DNA of 64,000 bases, taken from positions 2,720,001 through 2,784,000 of the forward strand of contig OZ252100.1 in the NCBI GenBank assembly GCA_965248435.1, read 5' to 3'. The translations under genes were made by a program, and so were the position numbers. The stretch comes from Candidatus Latescibacterota bacterium (GTDB taxonomy: Bacteria > Latescibacterota > UBA2968 > GCA-2709665). Shown here in pieces: positions 1 through 9,040 of this stretch (the stretch's first letter is position 1; each line of letters begins with the position of its first letter). The notes beneath the pieces were generated by a model. It did no database searches, was not told the origin of the DNA, and saw only the letters and a program-made list of their open reading frames with translations.

Positions 1-294
1 GCGGGCGGCAGGCGGGGGCGAGAGGAGACTCGCCAGAAGCGGCTGGAGCAGTTAAGAGGCATCCAAACAGAAATCCGGGTTGATTGGGGCCTGGGTGAAG
101 CTTCGCCGAAAGAAGTGGCCGACCTCCGTGTCGGAGACACGATCGTTCTGGATACCAGAACCGATGACCCCGGCGTCGTATATGTAGGGGGCCAGCCGAT
201 CTTCCTTGCCCGTCCGGGCCTCAGCGCCCGGAACCATTACGCGGTTGAATTGCTCCGTTCGCTGAGTCAAGAGGAGGTAAGAGATCATGTCTGA
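1..294 (+). CDS. fliM: FliM C-terminal (SpoA) domain, 5'-truncated by window edge
   Basis: Not in the ORF track. Frame +1 is open from base 1 and reads ...LRGIQTEIRVDWGLGEASPKEVADLRVGDTIVLDTRTDDPGVVYVGGQPIFLARPGLSARNHYAVELL...HV, stop TGA 292-294. LRVGDTIVL and V.GQPIFLARPG fit the FliM C-terminus. Overlaps the fliN start. Confidence 0.75.
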   Translation, partial: AGGRRGREETRQKRLEQLRGIQTEIRVDWGLGEASPKEVADLRVGDTIVLDTRTDDPGVVYVGGQPIFLARPGLSARNHYAVELLRSLSQEEVRDHV

Positions 295-595
295 GGAAAA
301 GGACAGAGTCAAGACTCGTGAGGTCGATCCGAGCTGGCCCAGGGATCTGGATGCCCGTCTTCAGCGGCTTGGAAAGGCGGGCTTGGAAGTGTCTGTCGTC
401 CTGGGTAGTACGAAGCTGCCCATCGAAGAGATCGTAAACGCAGAGCAGGGCACGCTCTTCGAACTGGACCGGATGAGCGGGCAGCCGATGGACATCCTGG
501 TCAACGGAACGCCGTTCGCGAAGGGAGAAATCGTCATCGTTGGGGACCATTTAGCGGTCCGCATCAATGAGCTTCTCGCGCCCGAAGAGATGTAA
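287..595 (+). CDS. fliN: FliN/FliM-family flagellar motor switch protein (SpoA domain)
   Basis: LEVSVVLGSTKLPIEEIV...GTLFELDRMSGQPMDILVNGTPFAKGEIVIVGDHLAVRINELL is a FliN signature; GAGGAGG RBS upstream. Confidence 0.88.
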   Translation: MSEEKDRVKTREVDPSWPRDLDARLQRLGKAGLEVSVVLGSTKLPIEEIVNAEQGTLFELDRMSGQPMDILVNGTPFAKGEIVIVGDHLAVRINELLAPEEM

Positions 596-606
596 GGAGA
601 ACACCG

Positions 607-1611
607 ATGACCAAAGGAACCGAGACATCTGCCTCAGGTCGAATGCTACAATCAAGCCAGGTTGCAGACATCCCCAAGGGCGCAAAGCCAGCACCCTGGA
701 AGCCCGCTGTCTTGACAGGCCAGCGGACCTACCCACCCCTCGAGATGCAGCTCGCGCAGCACAAAGAGGCTGCTGAGAAAGCGAGGGAGCCTAAACCTGC
801 CCGCGAGCGACAGACGGCGCCTCCTGAGCCTCAGGACGGGGGGCCGATTGCTCCGGATGAGTCGATGGAACAGATCGCCGCGCGCAGGCCAATAGACGTA
901 GCAAGGGCAGTAAGTACGCTGCTGATGCAGGCGGATGGCGAAAGCGCCGGCCTTCCAGCGGACCTGAAAGTTGCGATCCTGATCGTGGGCCTCGGCTCCG
1001 ATCTTTCAGCCGGTGTAATCAAATACCTGGCCGAACCGAAGATATCTCAGATCGCCCGTGCCGTCGCGGAGCTCGAAAGCGTCACCACCCGGCAGAGAGA
1101 CGACGTCTTCGACGAAGTCAAGCATCTGATATCTGGGAATCACCTTCTCCAGGGGGGAACTGCCTTCGCTCGGAACCTACTCGAGAAGGCGCTCGGTGAA
1201 CGGAAGGGACGGGCGATGATGTGGCGGGTGAGCGGAACGACCGAAAGAAAATTCGATTTGTTCCGAAACATCGATCCTGAACAAATCGTGTCCTTCATCG
1301 CGAGGGAACATCCGCAGACGATCGCCCTCATCCTGTCGCAGTTGGATGCGAAACAGGCAGCAGGGGTGCTCAACGGTCTCTCAGAGGAACTTCAGGATGA
1401 CGTGATCCTCCGCATCACCCAGATGGAGACCATTTCTCCCGAGGCGCTCAGTAGACTCGAACAGGGCCTGGCGGAGGACATCCACGCGATTCTGGCGGGT
1501 CAAGTCGAGGTAGGTGGGCAGAAAGCTGCAGCCGAGATTGTAAAGCAGGCGGAAGTCCTGCGCCAAAAAAGAGAGGAATCTCAAAATGCCCACGAAAAGG
1601 AAGGCACCTGA
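607..1611 (+). CDS. fliG: Atypical FliG-like protein: Pro-rich N-terminus, FliF-C-like helix, FliG N and M domains, no FliG C-terminal torque domain
   Basis: KVAILIVGLG...GGTAFARNLLEKALG (FliG-N), FDLFRNIDPEQIVSFIAREHPQTIALILSQL (FliG-M with EHPQ), GGQKAAAEIV, then stop about 20 aa later. AAGGAG RBS upstream. Confidence 0.85.
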   Translation: MTKGTETSASGRMLQSSQVADIPKGAKPAPWKPAVLTGQRTYPPLEMQLAQHKEAAEKAREPKPARERQTAPPEPQDGGPIAPDESMEQIAARRPIDVARAVSTLLMQADGESAGLPADLKVAILIVGLGSDLSAGVIKYLAEPKISQIARAVAELESVTTRQRDDVFDEVKHLISGNHLLQGGTAFARNLLEKALGERKGRAMMWRVSGTTERKFDLFRNIDPEQIVSFIAREHPQTIALILSQLDAKQAAGVLNGLSEELQDDVILRITQMETISPEALSRLEQGLAEDIHAILAGQVEVGGQKAAAEIVKQAEVLRQKREESQNAHEKEGT

Positions 1612-1864
1612 GCCCAGGGCAACGGCGCCCAATCGGGCCGCAGAAGTAGAAATGGACGTGAGCGTGGAACTCGGTCGCGTTCGCGTTCCCCTGGAGCGAC
1701 TCCTGACCTGGAGAGAAGGATCTACACTGGAGCTTTCCAAGGTATCAGGCGATCCAGCCGACGTGCTGGTCAACGGCGAACCGTTTGCCTGGGGCGAAGT
1801 CGTGACCGTTGGTGAAAGTTTTGGCGTTCGGTTAACGAAGATCCTGAACCGGGATGCTGTTTAG
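1586..1864 (+). CDS. fliN: Second FliN-family switch protein
   Basis: VEMDVSVELGRVRVPLERLL...GSTLELSKVSGDPADVLVNGEPFAWGEVVTVGESFGVRLTKIL; own GAGAGGA RBS inside the end of fliG. Confidence 0.88.
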   Translation: MPTKRKAPEPRATAPNRAAEVEMDVSVELGRVRVPLERLLTWREGSTLELSKVSGDPADVLVNGEPFAWGEVVTVGESFGVRLTKILNRDAV

Positions 1865-2218
1865 GTGCTCCAACATCGACAGCATCTCCTCGGCTTCCTG
1901 CCTGTGACCAGCGGCCTCCTGATCGGCGCCTGTCTCGTCTACTGCGCCGTCTGGTGGATCCCCCACCCCATGACGATTGCCGATCCTGACTGCAGCATCA
2001 CCTGCTGGGCCTACTGCGCCACGCAGAGCCCTTTCTGGGGCACCCTGACCGCGGTCCTTGCAGCCGGTCTCTGTTTTGGCGGCATCCTGATCCTCCTACG
2101 CAAAGAATACGGTATTGAGACCAGTCTTGTCCTCGGTATCCTCACCCTGCCCACAGGGCTCCTCGCGGTCGTCCCCTTCGCCTTCAACCGCTGGTCGCTC
2201 AGTCACCGAGAGGCCTGA
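1865..2218 (+). CDS. Small hypothetical membrane protein (about 3 TM segments, Cys-rich loop)
   Basis: GTG start directly after the fliN stop; three hydrophobic stretches; DCSITCWAYC in the loop between the first two. Confidence 0.55.
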   Translation: MLQHRQHLLGFLPVTSGLLIGACLVYCAVWWIPHPMTIADPDCSITCWAYCATQSPFWGTLTAVLAAGLCFGGILILLRKEYGIETSLVLGILTLPTGLLAVVPFAFNRWSLSHREA

Positions 2219-2269: not shown

Positions 2270-3529
2270 CTATCGGTAGGGTAGCGGCTCTGGGTCCAGC
2301 CATCGACACGCTCTGTCTTTGATCGCCCAGGTCGTGAAGAAGTTTCCCGCTGGAGTGTGGTGTTGATGGCCGATATAGTAACGATCCAGGTAGGTGTCGA
2401 TGTCTGTGTTGAACTGGCTGTACTCTCTAACAAACGCCTCCCGCATATCGATGACTGGAAAATCCCGGTTCTCGAGCCATTCCCGAAAGGACCGGTCGAA
2501 CCTCGGCTTTCCAGCCAGTTCGGCCGCCACATTCCCGCGGCAAAACGAAAGCATGAGCAGAAGCTTCTTGCCGGTTTCCTGAGTCAAGGCTTCGACTCGC
2601 TCCACAACATACCGGGTTGCAAAAAGAGCGGCCTCGGTATGGAGATCAACGATCTGGGCATACAGGTCGCCGTCGGAGCCCTGATCAAGGGACATCCCGA
2701 GGCCAGCGGCTGCAGCTGTGGCCACCTCGTGGAAGGACTTCTGATCTGCTTTTGTGGAGGATTCGGAGGCCTGCATCCTCCGACGCAGGTTTGGAACAGG
2801 TCCGGGGAAGGTGTCAAGATCGACCTCCTCTTCACCCGGCCTGCCCTCCCCCGGCCTGAGGGCTTCGACCTGGGCAACGACCAGCTTCAGCACCGGGTCA
2901 TCCTGGTATGCCTCCCATACAAACTCTGAGTCACAGAGGTCATAAACCGCTTCGGGCGTGCCGCTCGGGTTCTCGACCTCCTCACAGGTGCCCTTGCCGA
3001 GGTCGACCTTCAAGTGCGGGAGCGTAAACCTGGGCACGATGTCCATTCGGATCGATTGCCAGGCGTCCAGGTTGCGGAAATGGTCGTCGTCGAAAATATT
3101 GAGAATGATGTACTCCGCACCTGAATCCATCTCTACCCTGCACATGCGACGATAGGCCTGGTAGACGCTGCACCCCCCAACGCCGTAATTTCGGATGGGC
3201 TCCTGGATGTGTGCAGCGAGGTATTCCTGCCAGGTTTCACCGTCACTGACCTGGTGGCCGTGGGTAAAGCTGTCACCGTAACTGTGGATGCGACACGGTC
3301 GATCCGAAAAATTGACCACGCGCCGTGCTCCGTCCGATTCGTAATTGTAAAACCCTTTCGAACCCTCGATGCTGTTTTCACGCACGCCCGAGGTGTGTAC
3401 CCACCCAAGGTCCGCGTCAAACGCCCTGAAGTCTGACTCTGCCGCTGATCCATTGACGGCAGGCCGCACGAATCGGTCTATCATCTCCCGGCTGGGAACC
3501 AGGGAATCCAAATACGCCTTCCGGTCCAA
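2270..3529 (-). CDS. SGNH/GDSL hydrolase-like protein
   Basis: YGDSFTHG (block I), NYGVGG (block II) and C-terminal HHTPAGN; AAGGAG RBS upstream. Confidence 0.7.
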   Translation of the reverse strand: MDRKAYLDSLVPSREMIDRFVRPAVNGSAAESDFRAFDADLGWVHTSGVRENSIEGSKGFYNYESDGARRVVNFSDRPCRIHSYGDSFTHGHQVSDGETWQEYLAAHIQEPIRNYGVGGCSVYQAYRRMCRVEMDSGAEYIILNIFDDDHFRNLDAWQSIRMDIVPRFTLPHLKVDLGKGTCEEVENPSGTPEAVYDLCDSEFVWEAYQDDPVLKLVVAQVEALRPGEGRPGEEEVDLDTFPGPVPNLRRRMQASESSTKADQKSFHEVATAAAAGLGMSLDQGSDGDLYAQIVDLHTEAALFATRYVVERVEALTQETGKKLLLMLSFCRGNVAAELAGKPRFDRSFREWLENRDFPVIDMREAFVREYSQFNTDIDTYLDRYYIGHQHHTPAGNFFTTWAIKDRACRWLDPEPLPYR

Positions 3530-3643: not shown

Positions 3644-4768
3644 TCAGATCAGTCTGCCCAGTACCTCGAGAAGTCGTTCCACATCCGCGCTTCCGTTGAA
3701 CGCGTGTGTCGCGATCCGCATCCGTCCGCCATATCCATCACAAAGGACGCGCTGCTCCACCAACCTGTCTTTGAGAGACTCAGCTTCTTCGTAAATGCAA
3801 CATGTATTGCCCGAACGCGCTTCCCGCTTTTGCGGGCTGATCATGGTCAGGCCGAGTCCCTCCAGACCCGCATAGACCTGCTCTGAGAGATCCCTGGCAT
3901 GGCATTCGATCCGTTCCATGCCAATCCCCAGCAGCACCTCGAGGGACTGATCAAGGTACATCACCACCAGCTTGGCCACATTCCCCGGCTCGAGTCGCTC
4001 CGGCATCGGCTTTTCCCCGACCTCGGCCGGGCGCTCCGGCGACTGGAGCGGCCATATGTCCACATTGTGCCAGCCGAAACAGGTCGCGGCTGTCCTGGCT
4101 TCCGCCCGTTCGCTCAGGTAACAGGGGGCGACTCCGTGCGTCGCGAGCATCCACTTATAACTGCTGCTCACGGTCAAGTCGGTCACATCCGCCGGGACGG
4201 TCAACACACCTGAGGCGTGTGTGGCATCCACGGCCAGAAGCACATCGTTCAGGCCTTCCGAAAGCCGCCGCAGGTTCAGGCACTGCCCCGTGTAGAAGCT
4301 GACCTGGCTGACAGCCATCACGCGTGTTCGATGGTCCACAGCCGCGAGAAGGTCCTCTTCGTGAACGATCAGATCCTTGTGCGGCACCATTCTGACCTGC
4401 ACGCCTCGATCCTTCAGCTGTTTCCAGGCATAAACCACGGAGGGAAATTCGAGGTTGGACGTCACGACATTGTCGCCGTCCCGCCAATCCAACCCCCTTG
4501 CCAGCCAGTTCATACCTTCGGCCGCCGAGGGCATGAAGGCGACCCTCTCTGCCGGAACACCCCACAGCTCGCCCATTCGCTGCCGACATCGTGCCACACG
4601 CGCGATAAGCTTATCCCGCCCCTCCCACGAGGCACTCTTCCACTCCTTGAACGACCGATAAACCTCGTCGTGTGCCTTCAACCAGGGCCCCTCGCCGCCG
4701 GAGCCGAGATGCGTCACGCCCTCCAGTCCAACGAATTCGTCGGGTGAAATCAGGGGTTCTATGGTCAC
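3644..4768 (-). CDS. Aminotransferase class V / cysteine desulfurase-like PLP enzyme
   Basis: GDNVVTSNLEFPS, VDATHASG and SSYKWMLA (PLP lysine); C-terminal MRIATHAFN; GAGGA RBS. Confidence 0.88.
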   Translation of the reverse strand: MTIEPLISPDEFVGLEGVTHLGSGGEGPWLKAHDEVYRSFKEWKSASWEGRDKLIARVARCRQRMGELWGVPAERVAFMPSAAEGMNWLARGLDWRDGDNVVTSNLEFPSVVYAWKQLKDRGVQVRMVPHKDLIVHEEDLLAAVDHRTRVMAVSQVSFYTGQCLNLRRLSEGLNDVLLAVDATHASGVLTVPADVTDLTVSSSYKWMLATHGVAPCYLSERAEARTAATCFGWHNVDIWPLQSPERPAEVGEKPMPERLEPGNVAKLVVMYLDQSLEVLLGIGMERIECHARDLSEQVYAGLEGLGLTMISPQKREARSGNTCCIYEEAESLKDRLVEQRVLCDGYGGRMRIATHAFNGSADVERLLEVLGRLI

Positions 4769-7768: not shown

Positions 7769-9040
7769 ATGGATGATCTCGAAAACCAGAAAAATCAGCT
7801 CTTCTCGGAGCTGGCTGACTTGCGTAGGCAACTGACCGATCTGAGGGCCGCCGTATCGGATCAGGGAACGATCGAGGAGTCGCTCAGACAGAGCGAGGAT
7901 CGCTACCGGGCAGTTACCGAAAACGCCTTCGCCGGCATCACTATCACCGATCCGGATGAAAATATCACATTCGCCAATCCGGCCGCGGTGAGGATGCTGG
8001 GCTACACAAAAGACGAACTCCTGGGTGTCAACCTCTCGAAGTTGACTGATCCGAATGAATTCTCGAGGTACCGGGAATTTACGAAACAGCGGAAAAGAGG
8101 CGTGGAGAACCAGTATGAAACGCATCTCTACAGGAAGGACGGCGAGCGGATCAGTGTCCTCGTTTCCGTCTCCCCACTCTTGGATCTCCAGGAACGTCTG
8201 GAGGGCATTCTTGCCGTGGCCGTGGACATTACGGACCACAGACGTGCCGAAGAGGAACTTCGGAAGGCGAAAGAGGCTTACACTGAAAGACTCGAAGAAA
8301 TGGTCAGGGAACGAACGCGTGAACTCGAAGAGGCCCAGACGCAGCTGATTCACTCCGAAAAGCTCGCCGCGATGGGTAAGCTGGCAGCCGGTGTGGCTCA
8401 CGAGATTAACAATCCTGCAGGAGTGCTTTTGATGAAGCTGAAGTTCCTGCTATCAACTGCGGAGGAGGCGGGAGTCCCTCAACGAGCGGTTTCGAGCCTG
8501 CAGGTCTCAGTGGATCAGGTCGAGCGCATCCAAAAGATTGTCGAAAGCCTGCTCACGTTCTCGAGACAGCCCGAAGGAATCCCGGTTCCCACGTCCATCA
8601 ACCACGCAGTCGCGACGGCACTGCGGTTGACGGAGCATACCCTGTCCTCCCGCCGCATCGAACCGGAGCTCGACCTGGACCAGAGCCTGCCCGAGGTCTG
8701 TGCGGATCCGGCCGCGCTCGAGCAGGTCGTGATCAACCTGCTCAACAATGCCTCGGATGCCATGCCTGAAGGCGGTCGTCTGAAGGTGAGGACGTGGAAC
8801 GCATCGAAAGATGGGTGGGTTTACCTGTCTGTGGAGGACGATGGCGTGGGCATCCCGTCGGACTACCTGAGCAAGGTATTCGATCCTTTCTTTACGACCA
8901 AGCAGGTGGGAGAGGGAACCGGACTGGGTCTCTCGATAAGCTATGGAATCATAGAGAAGCTCGGAGGTCGGATCGAGGTTCAGAGTACCCCGGAAGAGGG
9001 CTCAACATTTACTGTCAAGCTTCCTGTCAAGAGGGGATAG
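7769..9040 (+). CDS. PAS-domain cytoplasmic sensor histidine kinase (NtrB/AtoS-like)
   Basis: PAS domain (FANPAAVRMLGYTKDELLG...RKDGERISV), H-box LAAGVAHEINNP, N-box NLLNNASDA, DDGVGI, FDPFFTTK and GTGLGL. No TM segment. ATG 7769 preferred over TTG 7751. Confidence 0.93.
   Translation: MDDLENQKNQLFSELADLRRQLTDLRAAVSDQGTIEESLRQSEDRYRAVTENAFAGITITDPDENITFANPAAVRMLGYTKDELLGVNLSKLTDPNEFSRYREFTKQRKRGVENQYETHLYRKDGERISVLVSVSPLLDLQERLEGILAVAVDITDHRRAEEELRKAKEAYTERLEEMVRERTRELEEAQTQLIHSEKLAAMGKLAAGVAHEINNPAGVLLMKLKFLLSTAEEAGVPQRAVSSLQVSVDQVERIQKIVESLLTFSRQPEGIPVPTSINHAVATALRLTEHTLSSRRIEPELDLDQSLPEVCADPAALEQVVINLLNNASDAMPEGGRLKVRTWNASKDGWVYLSVEDDGVGIPSDYLSKVFDPFFTTKQVGEGTGLGLSISYGIIEKLGGRIEVQSTPEEGSTFTVKLPVKRG

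Follow-up and report, generated by a model that had tools for sequence, protein, structure and literature searches.

What is a flagellar switch for when the torque sub-domain of its FliG is missing? The question is raised by the left end of a 64,000-nucleotide (nt) stretch of a Candidatus Latescibacterota genome (G000:C1:2720001-2784000; hereafter the window). The genome (G000) measures 5.67 Mb in 2 contigs and, like all genomes compared, was assembled from a metagenome. Open reading frame (ORF) calls and Pfam scans placed four switch genes at window positions 1-1864, all on the + strand and here named fliM', fliN', fliG' and fliN''. On domain content these were read as a paralogous accessory switch cassette, standing beside normal flagellar genes in flagellated members of one Latescibacterota class. 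The favoured reading, given a probability of roughly 0.45-0.5, is that the cassette encodes a functional rotor-type complex that makes no torque, is deaf to CheY and is induced through an extracytoplasmic function (ECF) sigma factor, as a decoy, a brake or an assembly-state scaffold.

Domain content of the switch proteins

In the canonical motor, FliG_N binds the C-terminus of FliF and FliG_M (EHPQR) binds FliM; stacking of ARM_M on ARM_C connects neighbouring FliG molecules, and a charged helix of FliG_CC contacts MotA. The N-terminal peptide of FliM binds CheY-P, and the SpoA domains of FliM and FliN make up the base of the ring and serve as docking sites for FliH/FliI.

The fliG' gene (607..1611, +; 334 amino acids (aa)) encodes an N-terminal extension, a FliG_N domain (967..1248, residues 121-214; PF14842, E 1.1e-25), a FliG_M domain (1276..1494, residues 224-296; PF14841, E 8.7e-31) and a short tail. 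EHPQT at residues 234-238 (EHPQ 234-237, nt 1306-1317) is identical to the motif in the canonical FliG of the same genome. The GG hinge (nt 1513-1518) and tail span 1513..1611; the hinge is followed by 30 residues and a TGA stop, so that the protein ends 22 residues past GGQKAAAEIV. PF01706 (FliG_C) had no match in the FliG' protein, and of the 8 matches that FliG_C had when the whole genome was searched in six frames, none falls at the cassette locus. Against TIGR00207, FliG' scored 168.9 bits (cut-off 226.7), and only model positions 10-212 of 338 were matched. Absent are the MFXF hinge, the six-helix torque sub-domain (FliG_CC) and most of ARM_C. The tail past the GG was modelled by AlphaFold2 as one helix at a predicted local distance difference test score (pLDDT) of 48-73; it is probably a degenerate remnant of an ARM_C that is no longer intact. 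The model of FliG' was matched by Foldseek to the FliG chains of 8umd, 9n49 and 8wiw (E 1.8e-07 to 1.3e-06).

A preliminary description of the window, made from its letters, had proposed FliG_N and FliG_M with an intact EHPQ, a stop about 20 aa after GGQKAAAEIV, a next fliN that starts at once with its own ribosome-binding site and leaves no room for a frameshifted FliG-C, and the gene order fliM-fliN-fliG-fliN; the Pfam scans, the ORF calls and the six-frame search bear out all of these. An assembly artefact or frameshift concealing FliG_C was considered and rejected: no frame at the locus gave a FliG_C signal, and the same kind of truncation was found in independent assemblies (L055, P0124 and G044 L033).

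FliM' is a FliM paralog of 344 aa (G000:C1:2719260-2720294) whose gene starts 741 nt left of base 1; its 3' part in the window (1..294, +, with an open 5' end) encodes the FliMN_C part. The FliM middle domain (PF02154, E 3.3e-43) and FliMN_C (PF01052, E 1.4e-13) were recovered, and the score against TIGR01397 was 206.8 bits (cut-off 219.6), the match beginning at model position 20. The protein has neither the N-terminal CheY-P-binding peptide (LSQxEIDALL type) nor a receiver domain. A peptide of the LSQDEIDALL type was recognisable in the one canonical FliM of the genome, which begins MPDILSQDEIDALL, and in 9/9 compared FliM relatives, degenerate in some; among 10 aligned FliM proteins FliM' of G000 is the sole member without both receiver and peptide.

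FliN' (287..595, +; 102 aa) and FliN'' (1586..1864, +; 92 aa) each consist of a FliMN_C/SpoA domain (PF01052, E 4.7e-21 and 8.2e-22, respectively). They scored 73.9 and 71.9 bits against the TIGR02480 equivalog, under its cut-off of 84.05, and 53.8 and 58.5 bits against the SctQ model TIGR02551, far under its cut-off of 100.8.

The cassette thus retains the assembly parts, namely FliG_N, FliG_M with EHPQ, the FliM middle domain and three SpoA domains. Because FliG_CC is missing, the set is by domain content uncoupled from the stator, as the preliminary description had held; it is by the same measure uncoupled from CheY as well, a point which that description had not seen. With FliG_CC, CheY peptide and receiver all missing, the cassette is without every known motor input and output.

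Probable operon, sigma factor and promoter

The sequence left of base 1 holds the rest of FliM' and then an ECF sigma/zf-HC2 anti-sigma pair, unseen in the preliminary description. The gene order is ECF sigma, anti-sigma, FliM', FliN', FliG', FliN'', the two regulatory genes and the 5' part of fliM' lying just outside the window. The sigma factor (184 aa) matched sigma-70 regions 2 and 4 (PF04542, E 2.7e-19, and PF08281, E 4.6e-15); the anti-sigma factor (148 aa) matched zf-HC2 (PF13490, E 1.5e-10) and, read from its sequence, has no obvious membrane segment. A gap of 57 nt separates the anti-sigma gene from fliM'. The start of fliN' overlaps the stop of fliM', with GAGGAGG upstream of fliN', and the ATG of fliN'' lies inside the fliG' tail, preceded by GAGAGGAA. 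FliN', FliG' and FliN'' each have their own purine-rich ribosome-binding site, the frames overlap or nearly abut, and all four switch frames are intact; the first gene to the right is on the opposite strand. ECF sigma through FliN'' is one likely operon, of which the window holds the 3' part.

In 4/4 genomes first read (G000, G004, G038 and G043), TGTTACC-N17-TCTAAA precedes the ECF gene by about 45-70 nt, a layout which we take to be that of an ECF-type promoter. It was not found in the upstream region of L055. Searched genome-wide in G000, the motif had 2 sites, even at 1 mismatch, and no regulon could be defined from the cassette's own site and one other. The other (G000:C1:5655180-5655208, -) is an exact copy within a glycosyltransferase gene near the end of contig 1, with more genes for glycosyltransferases and methyltransferases downstream of it; the match may be due to chance, or the ECF sigma may have a second target there. 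Judged from the motif and gene order, the simplest reading is an autoregulated sigma/anti-sigma/cassette operon.

Flagellar genes elsewhere in the genome

Three full-length FliG are encoded elsewhere in G000: a nearly identical tandem pair (C1:2545898-2546914 and 2547389-2548405) and a third copy (C1:4870988-4872004). Besides the canonical FliM there are three further FliN, one FliF, one full FlhA (plus an FlhA fragment fused to a sigma factor), eight flagellin-type matches and seven rod/hook-type matches. One MotA_ExbB gene lies within a flagellar cluster at 3.50-3.55 Mb; the MotA_N model matched nothing in the genome. By this gene content the organism is otherwise flagellated, with a full flagellar gene set away from the cassette. 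No complete second flagellar system was found, FliF, full FlhA and the MotA-type gene each being single. Genome-wide searches with flagellar domains gave no match in the remaining 62 kb of the window; the preliminary description had remarked on this absence, which is real but unremarkable given that flagellar genes are scattered throughout the genome.

Several other proteins with switch or stator domains were recorded. A MotA/TolQ/ExbB-family protein of 149 aa (L005:11011-11460, -, equal to G000:C1:2711011-2711460; PF01618, E 1e-06) has apparent membrane helices and almost no cytoplasmic loop; its gene lies 9 kb left of the window, with unrelated genes between it and the cassette. Among stand-alone single-domain derivatives of switch proteins, three carry FliG_CC alone and start near the MFXF hinge (232 aa, C1:2513186-2513884, -; 103 aa, C1:2296320-2296631, +; 571 aa, C1:31623-33338, +). 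The C-terminal half of the 232-aa protein may resemble the MotA cytoplasmic loop; Pfam detects FliG_C only. A FliG_N-like protein of 122 aa (C1:2197579-2197947, +) and a FliM-middle-only protein of 186 aa (C1:3186008-3186568, -) were also present.

ECF sigma factors fused at their C-termini to flagellar domains form a further group: an FHIPEP fragment (FlhA 322-408) once, the FliM middle domain twice and FliG_C twice. Four of the fusions lie within 17 kb (G000:C1:943471-960122; L047: 1471-2376, 4970-6121, 14158-15315 and 17277-18122) and were above Pfam cut-offs by hmmscan; the fifth (C1:5324598-5325200) passed the FliG_C cut-off when all six frames were searched. A full-length ECF::FliM fusion was found in G000 only, out of 53 genomes of the order. 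A relative, G004, had 8 FliG-type matches.

Distribution and form in relatives

A FliG-type match to FliG' (E <= 1e-10) was obtained in 7/41 genomes (G000 and 40 relatives). The 34 genomes without one include G001, of the same genus, and none of the 34 had a match to the N-terminal extension. With a profile of the extension (A2), the family was found in 8/53 genomes of the order and in 9/168 genomes of the phylum, 12 candidates being scored per genome in the phylum-wide run. FliF was counted in five family genomes and was present exactly once in four; none was found in G041 (90% complete, 930 contigs). Within the order, every genome in which the cassette was seen also gave flagellar genes, and no genome of the non-flagellated majority showed it. 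The cassette thus recurs in relatives, a point that the preliminary description had wanted checked, but their FliG' usually keeps FliG_C.

Domains were mapped on the loci by phmmer, the queries being segments of G000 proteins (switch, sigma and FGE domains only), and key cases were confirmed by Pfam. A first scan of metagenomes with a single protein gave no match; when alignment A2 served as the query, 4 loci were recovered. The order ECF, anti-sigma, FliM', FliN, FliG', FliN was found in G000, G004, G038 (L038), G043 and the metagenome contigs L054 and L055. The FliG' of relatives has either 413-461 aa (N-extension plus full FliG) or 681-714 aa, the longer form with an FGE-sulfatase domain (E about 1e-60) inside the extension. 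ECF-led FliM' was fused to one or two receiver domains (G004, E 4.9e-25; G043, E 2.3e-48); the receiver signal in G038 was weak (E 8.9e-4) and under the Pfam cut-off. The LSQxEIDALL-type peptide comes after the receiver in the FliM' of relatives, and these receiver (REC)::FliM' proteins look like a tethered CheY by their domain order.

Identity between G000 and G004 was 73% for the ECF sigma, 63% for the anti-sigma, 61% for FliM', 62% for FliN' and 61% for FliN''. In these five cassette proteins G000 is nearest to G004 (61-73% identity, vs 40-61% to L055), and its FliG' groups with the FGE::FliG clade of G004 and G005, although the support (90/52) is not strong.

Fusions of a FliM middle domain, a FliF_C-like peptide and FliG (N, M and C), 575-660 aa long, were recorded at L036:7909-9414 of G038, where the FliG_C portion is split across two frames, and as P0131, P0133 and P0137. 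In L055 a FliM-middle-only gene directly follows the cassette.

N-terminal extension and FliF-like helix pair

The extension of FliG' has 110 aa and two conserved pieces. The first (634..771, +; residues about 10-55) is a motif around an invariant Trp, …PW(S/K)PP.L…PL.M.L, and is predicted to be disordered; W31, P33 and L36 are invariant in the 7-row alignment A2. The second, PISPDES.EQIAARRP.DVAR.I.TLL, lies immediately before FliG_N and contains a helix pair (841..930, +; residues 79-108, PIAPDESMEQIAARRPIDVARAVSTLLMQ) likened to the FliF C-terminus through the peptide type (R)PEDVA(K/R)xIRTxL. When A2 was compared with the FliF of G000 by hhalign, residues 478-500 of 510 (RIAQLISERPEDAAKLIRTMLIE) were matched at E 0.0023 and a probability of 12%. 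The extension profile had one match among PDB sequences, at E 0.35, to the C-terminus of FliF (the final 21 residues of a flagellar M-ring protein). A homology search with the N-extension region alone recovered only the query itself.

AlphaFold2, run on a 38-row alignment, placed helices at residues 87-93 and 95-108 (pLDDT 94-95) in a whole FliG' model with a mean pLDDT of 76 and a predicted template modelling score (pTM) of 0.47. Complex prediction for peptide 62-111 with FliG_N 112-216 gave a score of 0.48 against 0.00 for the best of 3 controls, graded 'weak support': the mark was reached by 58/80 solved complexes and 2/110 mismatched pairs, and scores <=0.60 came from only 7 of those 80 solved complexes and from both passing mismatches. 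Contact agreement between runs was at least 77% and partner pLDDT at least 56. Since structures of FliF bound to FliG have been solved (5tdy, T. maritima; 5wuj, H. pylori), the score shows likeness, not binding. The FliF-C::FliG label given to this gene in the preliminary description thus receives weak but consistent backing from the profile, the PDB match, the model and the complex score; a FliF-C mimic is likely but unproven.

Recurrent loss of FliG_CC and the case for decay

Sixteen family genes with a complete 3' end were mapped in the loci, the genes of G042 L026 and of L053, cut by contig ends, being left out. FliG_C was present in 12 of the 16, in one of them (G038 L036) split over two frames. 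The four without it are those of G000, G044 L033, G038 L036:6869-7561 and L055. In G044 L033 the protein (FGE, N and M; 502 aa) is followed 16 nt later by fliM, and in G038 L036:6869-7561 the 230-aa protein is followed by an overlapping fliN; both copies stop right past ARM_C, just before the MFXF hinge. The FliG' of L055 stops 21-22 residues past the GG, compared with 30 in G000.

A second extension profile (A4) was searched against 1.84 billion cluster representatives and gave 19 proteins at E <= 0.001. Ten were scanned with Pfam: P0121 (the L055 protein), P0124 and P0132 had N and M and no FliG_C, six had FliG_C (three of them FliM-middle::FliG fusions), and one was a fragment. Judged by length, seven more of the 19 look full-length (4), fragmentary (2) or spurious (1). 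In P0124, ARM_C is joined directly to ...VRQLEEQGQMTL, the last helix of FliG_C; by its sequence, the torque sub-domain has been cleanly deleted from within the protein, and the G000 tail (AEVLRQKREESQ...) may have been left by a deletion of the P0124 kind. P0132 may be a frameshift product.

The L055 cassette has the same reduced form as that of G000, with no receiver, no FGE and no FliG_CC and with similar gene sizes, at an identity of 37% in FliG' and of 40-61% across the rest of the cassette. An approximately unbiased (AU) test neither rejected nor established a single origin of the two truncations (p 0.07); pairwise identities favour independent ones. The two would represent either an old, persisting lineage without FliG_CC or the same end state reached twice, and random decay predicts neither. 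Compared across genes, loss of FliG_CC recurs in at least four or five lineages, near the ARM_C/hinge boundary, with domain precision and with the frames intact.

Constraint on the retained part was gauged from 64 columns of the N-M region conserved at >=85% over 38 sequences. The FliG' of G000 deviates in 8 of these; the range is 1-24 for the other N-extended or FGE-fused paralogs in the alignment (15 sequences) and 0-3 for canonical FliG. Its branch measured 0.63-0.72, vs 0.29-0.54 for full-length sisters, about 2x that of G004 and near that of G005. EHPQ, the GG hinge and other invariant positions are retained, and the N and M domains carry no apparent sign of free drift.

The main rival to a functional complex is reductive decay, in which the cassette would be a functionless relic that has lost receiver, CheY peptide, FGE and torque sub-domain. 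Several findings weigh on that side. The nearest cassette-bearing relatives, G004 and G005, keep full FliG_C in FliG', and the FliM' of G004 keeps its receiver, so that the G000 form is derived by domain losses, as decay would also look. The lineage is prone to loss, most of the family, G001 included, having no flagellar genes (34/41 genomes without a FliG-type match). FliM' of G000 has a private, lineage-specific insertion of 26 aa. The degenerate ARM_C tail, as modelled, may impair ring-type ARM_M/ARM_C stacking. The FliG_CC-less copies of L055 (branch 2.31) and G038 L036 (branch 2.98) are on very long branches, and the G038 L036 locus has split or broken frames; both features fit relaxed constraint. 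Against the favoured reading itself stands that the evidence for FliF mimicry is weak at each step (12% probability, E 0.35 and a weak complex score).

Other findings speak against decay: none of the four switch frames is broken, their coupling is tight and ribosome-binding sites precede them; the N and M domains deviate no more than they do in full-length paralogs; sigma factor, anti-sigma factor and promoter are conserved; and clean losses at a domain boundary are seen in at least 4 lineages, with the same end state in L055. The preliminary description had named full-length FliG at this locus in relatives, pointing to recent decay or an assembly artefact, as a result that would refute it. 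Full-length FliG is indeed present in G004 and G005, the nearest relatives, yet loss of the same domain recurs in other lineages with intact frames, so that recent decay is likewise not the simplest account. On this balance decay was judged unlikely, while being taken more seriously than any other alternative.

Two further truncated FliG were noted outside these comparisons. In G038 a canonical-type FliG (L037:5926-6696 and 7788-8264) is broken within FliG_C just past an MFXF-type hinge, with the remaining FliG_C about 1.1 kb downstream, for which an insertion or a fault of assembly may be responsible. P0073, with 239 aa, has N and M only, and the 5.1-Mb genome from which it comes encodes a full FliG (P0094) as well; past GGPKA, P0073 resembles a frameshifted canonical FliG and is probably an error or a pseudogene, outside the N-extended family.

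Proposed mechanism and remaining alternatives

Under the favoured reading of a functional, torque-less complex, the FliF-like helix pair would probably fill the FliF groove of FliG_N in the same or a neighbouring molecule, and the complex, having its own FliF-like pair, would assemble without FliF. Upon release of the ECF sigma factor the cell would make a rotor-type complex with neither torque nor CheY response. Such a complex would not drive rotation; its effect on the flagellar system would be that of a scaffold, passive or inhibitory. It might compete with the genuine C ring for partners such as FliM, FliN or FliH/FliI, or for contacts between FliG_N and FliF, or it might report assembly state to the sigma/anti-sigma pair. 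The inhibitory or scaffold role of the complex we infer purely.

The cassette could alternatively supply rotor subunits that enter the real C ring, by exchange or in new motors, and paralyse or brake it as a clutch. In favour of this, the FliG_N, FliG_M and FliM/FliN interfaces are kept and the torque sub-domain is gone, and ECF control suggests conditional expression. According to PMC3760246, an engineered C. jejuni FliG without its C-terminal domain is stable and keeps FliF stable. A helix pair bound in cis would, however, block attachment to FliF. FliF and FliG bind 1:1, and with one FliF per genome there are perhaps no free sites. ARM_C, moreover, is degenerate. Entry into the real ring was therefore considered improbable.

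A bolder possibility, considered a little less probable again, is that the torque-less complex serves as a platform and, depending on its state of assembly, binds or frees the soluble anti-sigma factor of the cassette, with switch domains as a docking code for transcription control. Such a platform could also capture the G000 sigma fusions ECF::FliM-middle, ECF::FliG_CC and ECF::FlhA fragment; the building, stalling and dismantling of rotors would then be read by ECF sigma factors, as a FlgM-like checkpoint made from rotor parts.

FliG might also be split, with FliG_CC supplied in trans by a stand-alone protein (103 aa or 232 aa) and stator contact kept. Several FliG_CC-only proteins of G000 are above the Pfam cut-off and start near the MFXF hinge. 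No FliG_CC-only gene lies near the cassette, however, none of these proteins is specifically related to the FliG_C of FliG' orthologs (identities <=47%, and about the same to canonical FliG), and FliG' is without most of ARM_C and the tethering hinge; a split FliG is accordingly given little credence.

Least credible is the proposal of the preliminary description that the proteins form a ring resembling a switch, or a sorting platform, and serve a machine other than the flagellum: the absence of other flagellar genes within 62 kb, a domain content that shows no stator or CheY coupling and a possibly FliF-independent assembly would suit it, but the flagellar genes of G000 form a full set and are scattered anyway, within the order the cassette was found only alongside canonical flagellar genes, no secretion or other machine genes adjoin the mapped loci (as queried with switch, sigma and FGE domains only), and SctQ models score far under cut-off, so that repurposing of this kind is unsupported.

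Relation to known systems

The canonical C ring (Salmonella 8umd, 9n49 and 8wiw) is built from the same three families and folds, and EHPQ, the GG hinge, the FliM middle domain and SpoA are all found in the cassette. The cassette differs from it in lacking FliG_CC and the FliM CheY peptide, in the extra 110-aa FliG N-extension, in its order fliM-fliN-fliG-fliN behind an ECF/anti-sigma pair, and in being extra to canonical copies. With the FliF C-terminus on FliG_N (5tdy and 5wuj) it would share the type of two-helix peptide beside FliG_N, a likeness whose statistical support is weak; here, in contrast, the peptide belongs to FliG, with nothing else of FliF present. What comes before it in relatives is the conserved N-motif, an FGE-sulfatase domain or a FliM middle domain. 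Laboratory FliF-FliG fusion proteins of Salmonella exist.

FliG, FliM and FliN paralogs and FliM without the CheY peptide are known in dual-flagellar systems; FliM2 of the secondary flagellar system of Shewanella putrefaciens is without the CheY-binding N-terminus. FliM' is likewise a peptide-less paralog beside a canonical, peptide-bearing FliM. Secondary systems, however, have a complete second gene set (FliF and stators) and a FliG torque domain, whereas G000 has one FliF and one FlhA. EpsE of B. subtilis and YcgR of E. coli are motor clutches or brakes that bind FliG; conditional uncoupling of rotor and stator is the common proposed outcome, but the agent would be a FliG/FliM/FliN set and not an unrelated protein. 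The sorting platform of type III secretion systems (SctQ/SctK/SctL) has SpoA proteins in common with the cassette, whose FliM and FliG domains are flagellar-type and whose SctQ score is under cut-off.

In C. jejuni, FliF and FliG activate FlgSR, so that rotor proteins signal to transcription, and an engineered FliG without the C-terminal domain gave about 40% of wild-type FlgSR-dependent reporter expression (PMC3760246). As described there, that case involves a two-component system, sigma-54 and an engineered truncation, whereas the cassette has a natural truncated paralog with an ECF/anti-sigma pair. A narrow text search found no literature description of an ECF-led switch cassette, of a FliG with a FliF-like peptide, of FGE::FliG, REC::FliM or FliM::FliG fusions, or of recurrent natural deletion of the torque sub-domain.

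If functional, the cassette would be a natural experiment on the rotor: a FliG that keeps its assembly interfaces, has shed its torque sub-domain and carries a FliF-like peptide, paired with a FliM deaf to CheY, the whole set under an ECF sigma factor. It would show how rotor-like complexes can be made for regulation instead of rotation, and would offer a handle on which parts of FliG suffice for complex or ring formation without the membrane-supramembrane (MS) ring and on the coupling between motor state and transcription. The wider family comprises FliF_C-like::FliG proteins, some with a preceding FGE-sulfatase or FliM middle domain, and REC::FliM partners.

Neighbouring open reading frames

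Directly right of the cassette, a hydrophobic ORF of 117 aa (1865..2218, +) had no Pfam match and no counterpart in any related cassette locus mapped; its status as a gene is therefore doubtful, and it is perhaps no gene. Two genes unrelated to the cassette follow on the opposite strand: a weakly GDSL-lipase-like protein, below cut-off, at 2270-3529 (-), and a class-V aminotransferase (E 7.5e-27) at 3644-4768 (-).

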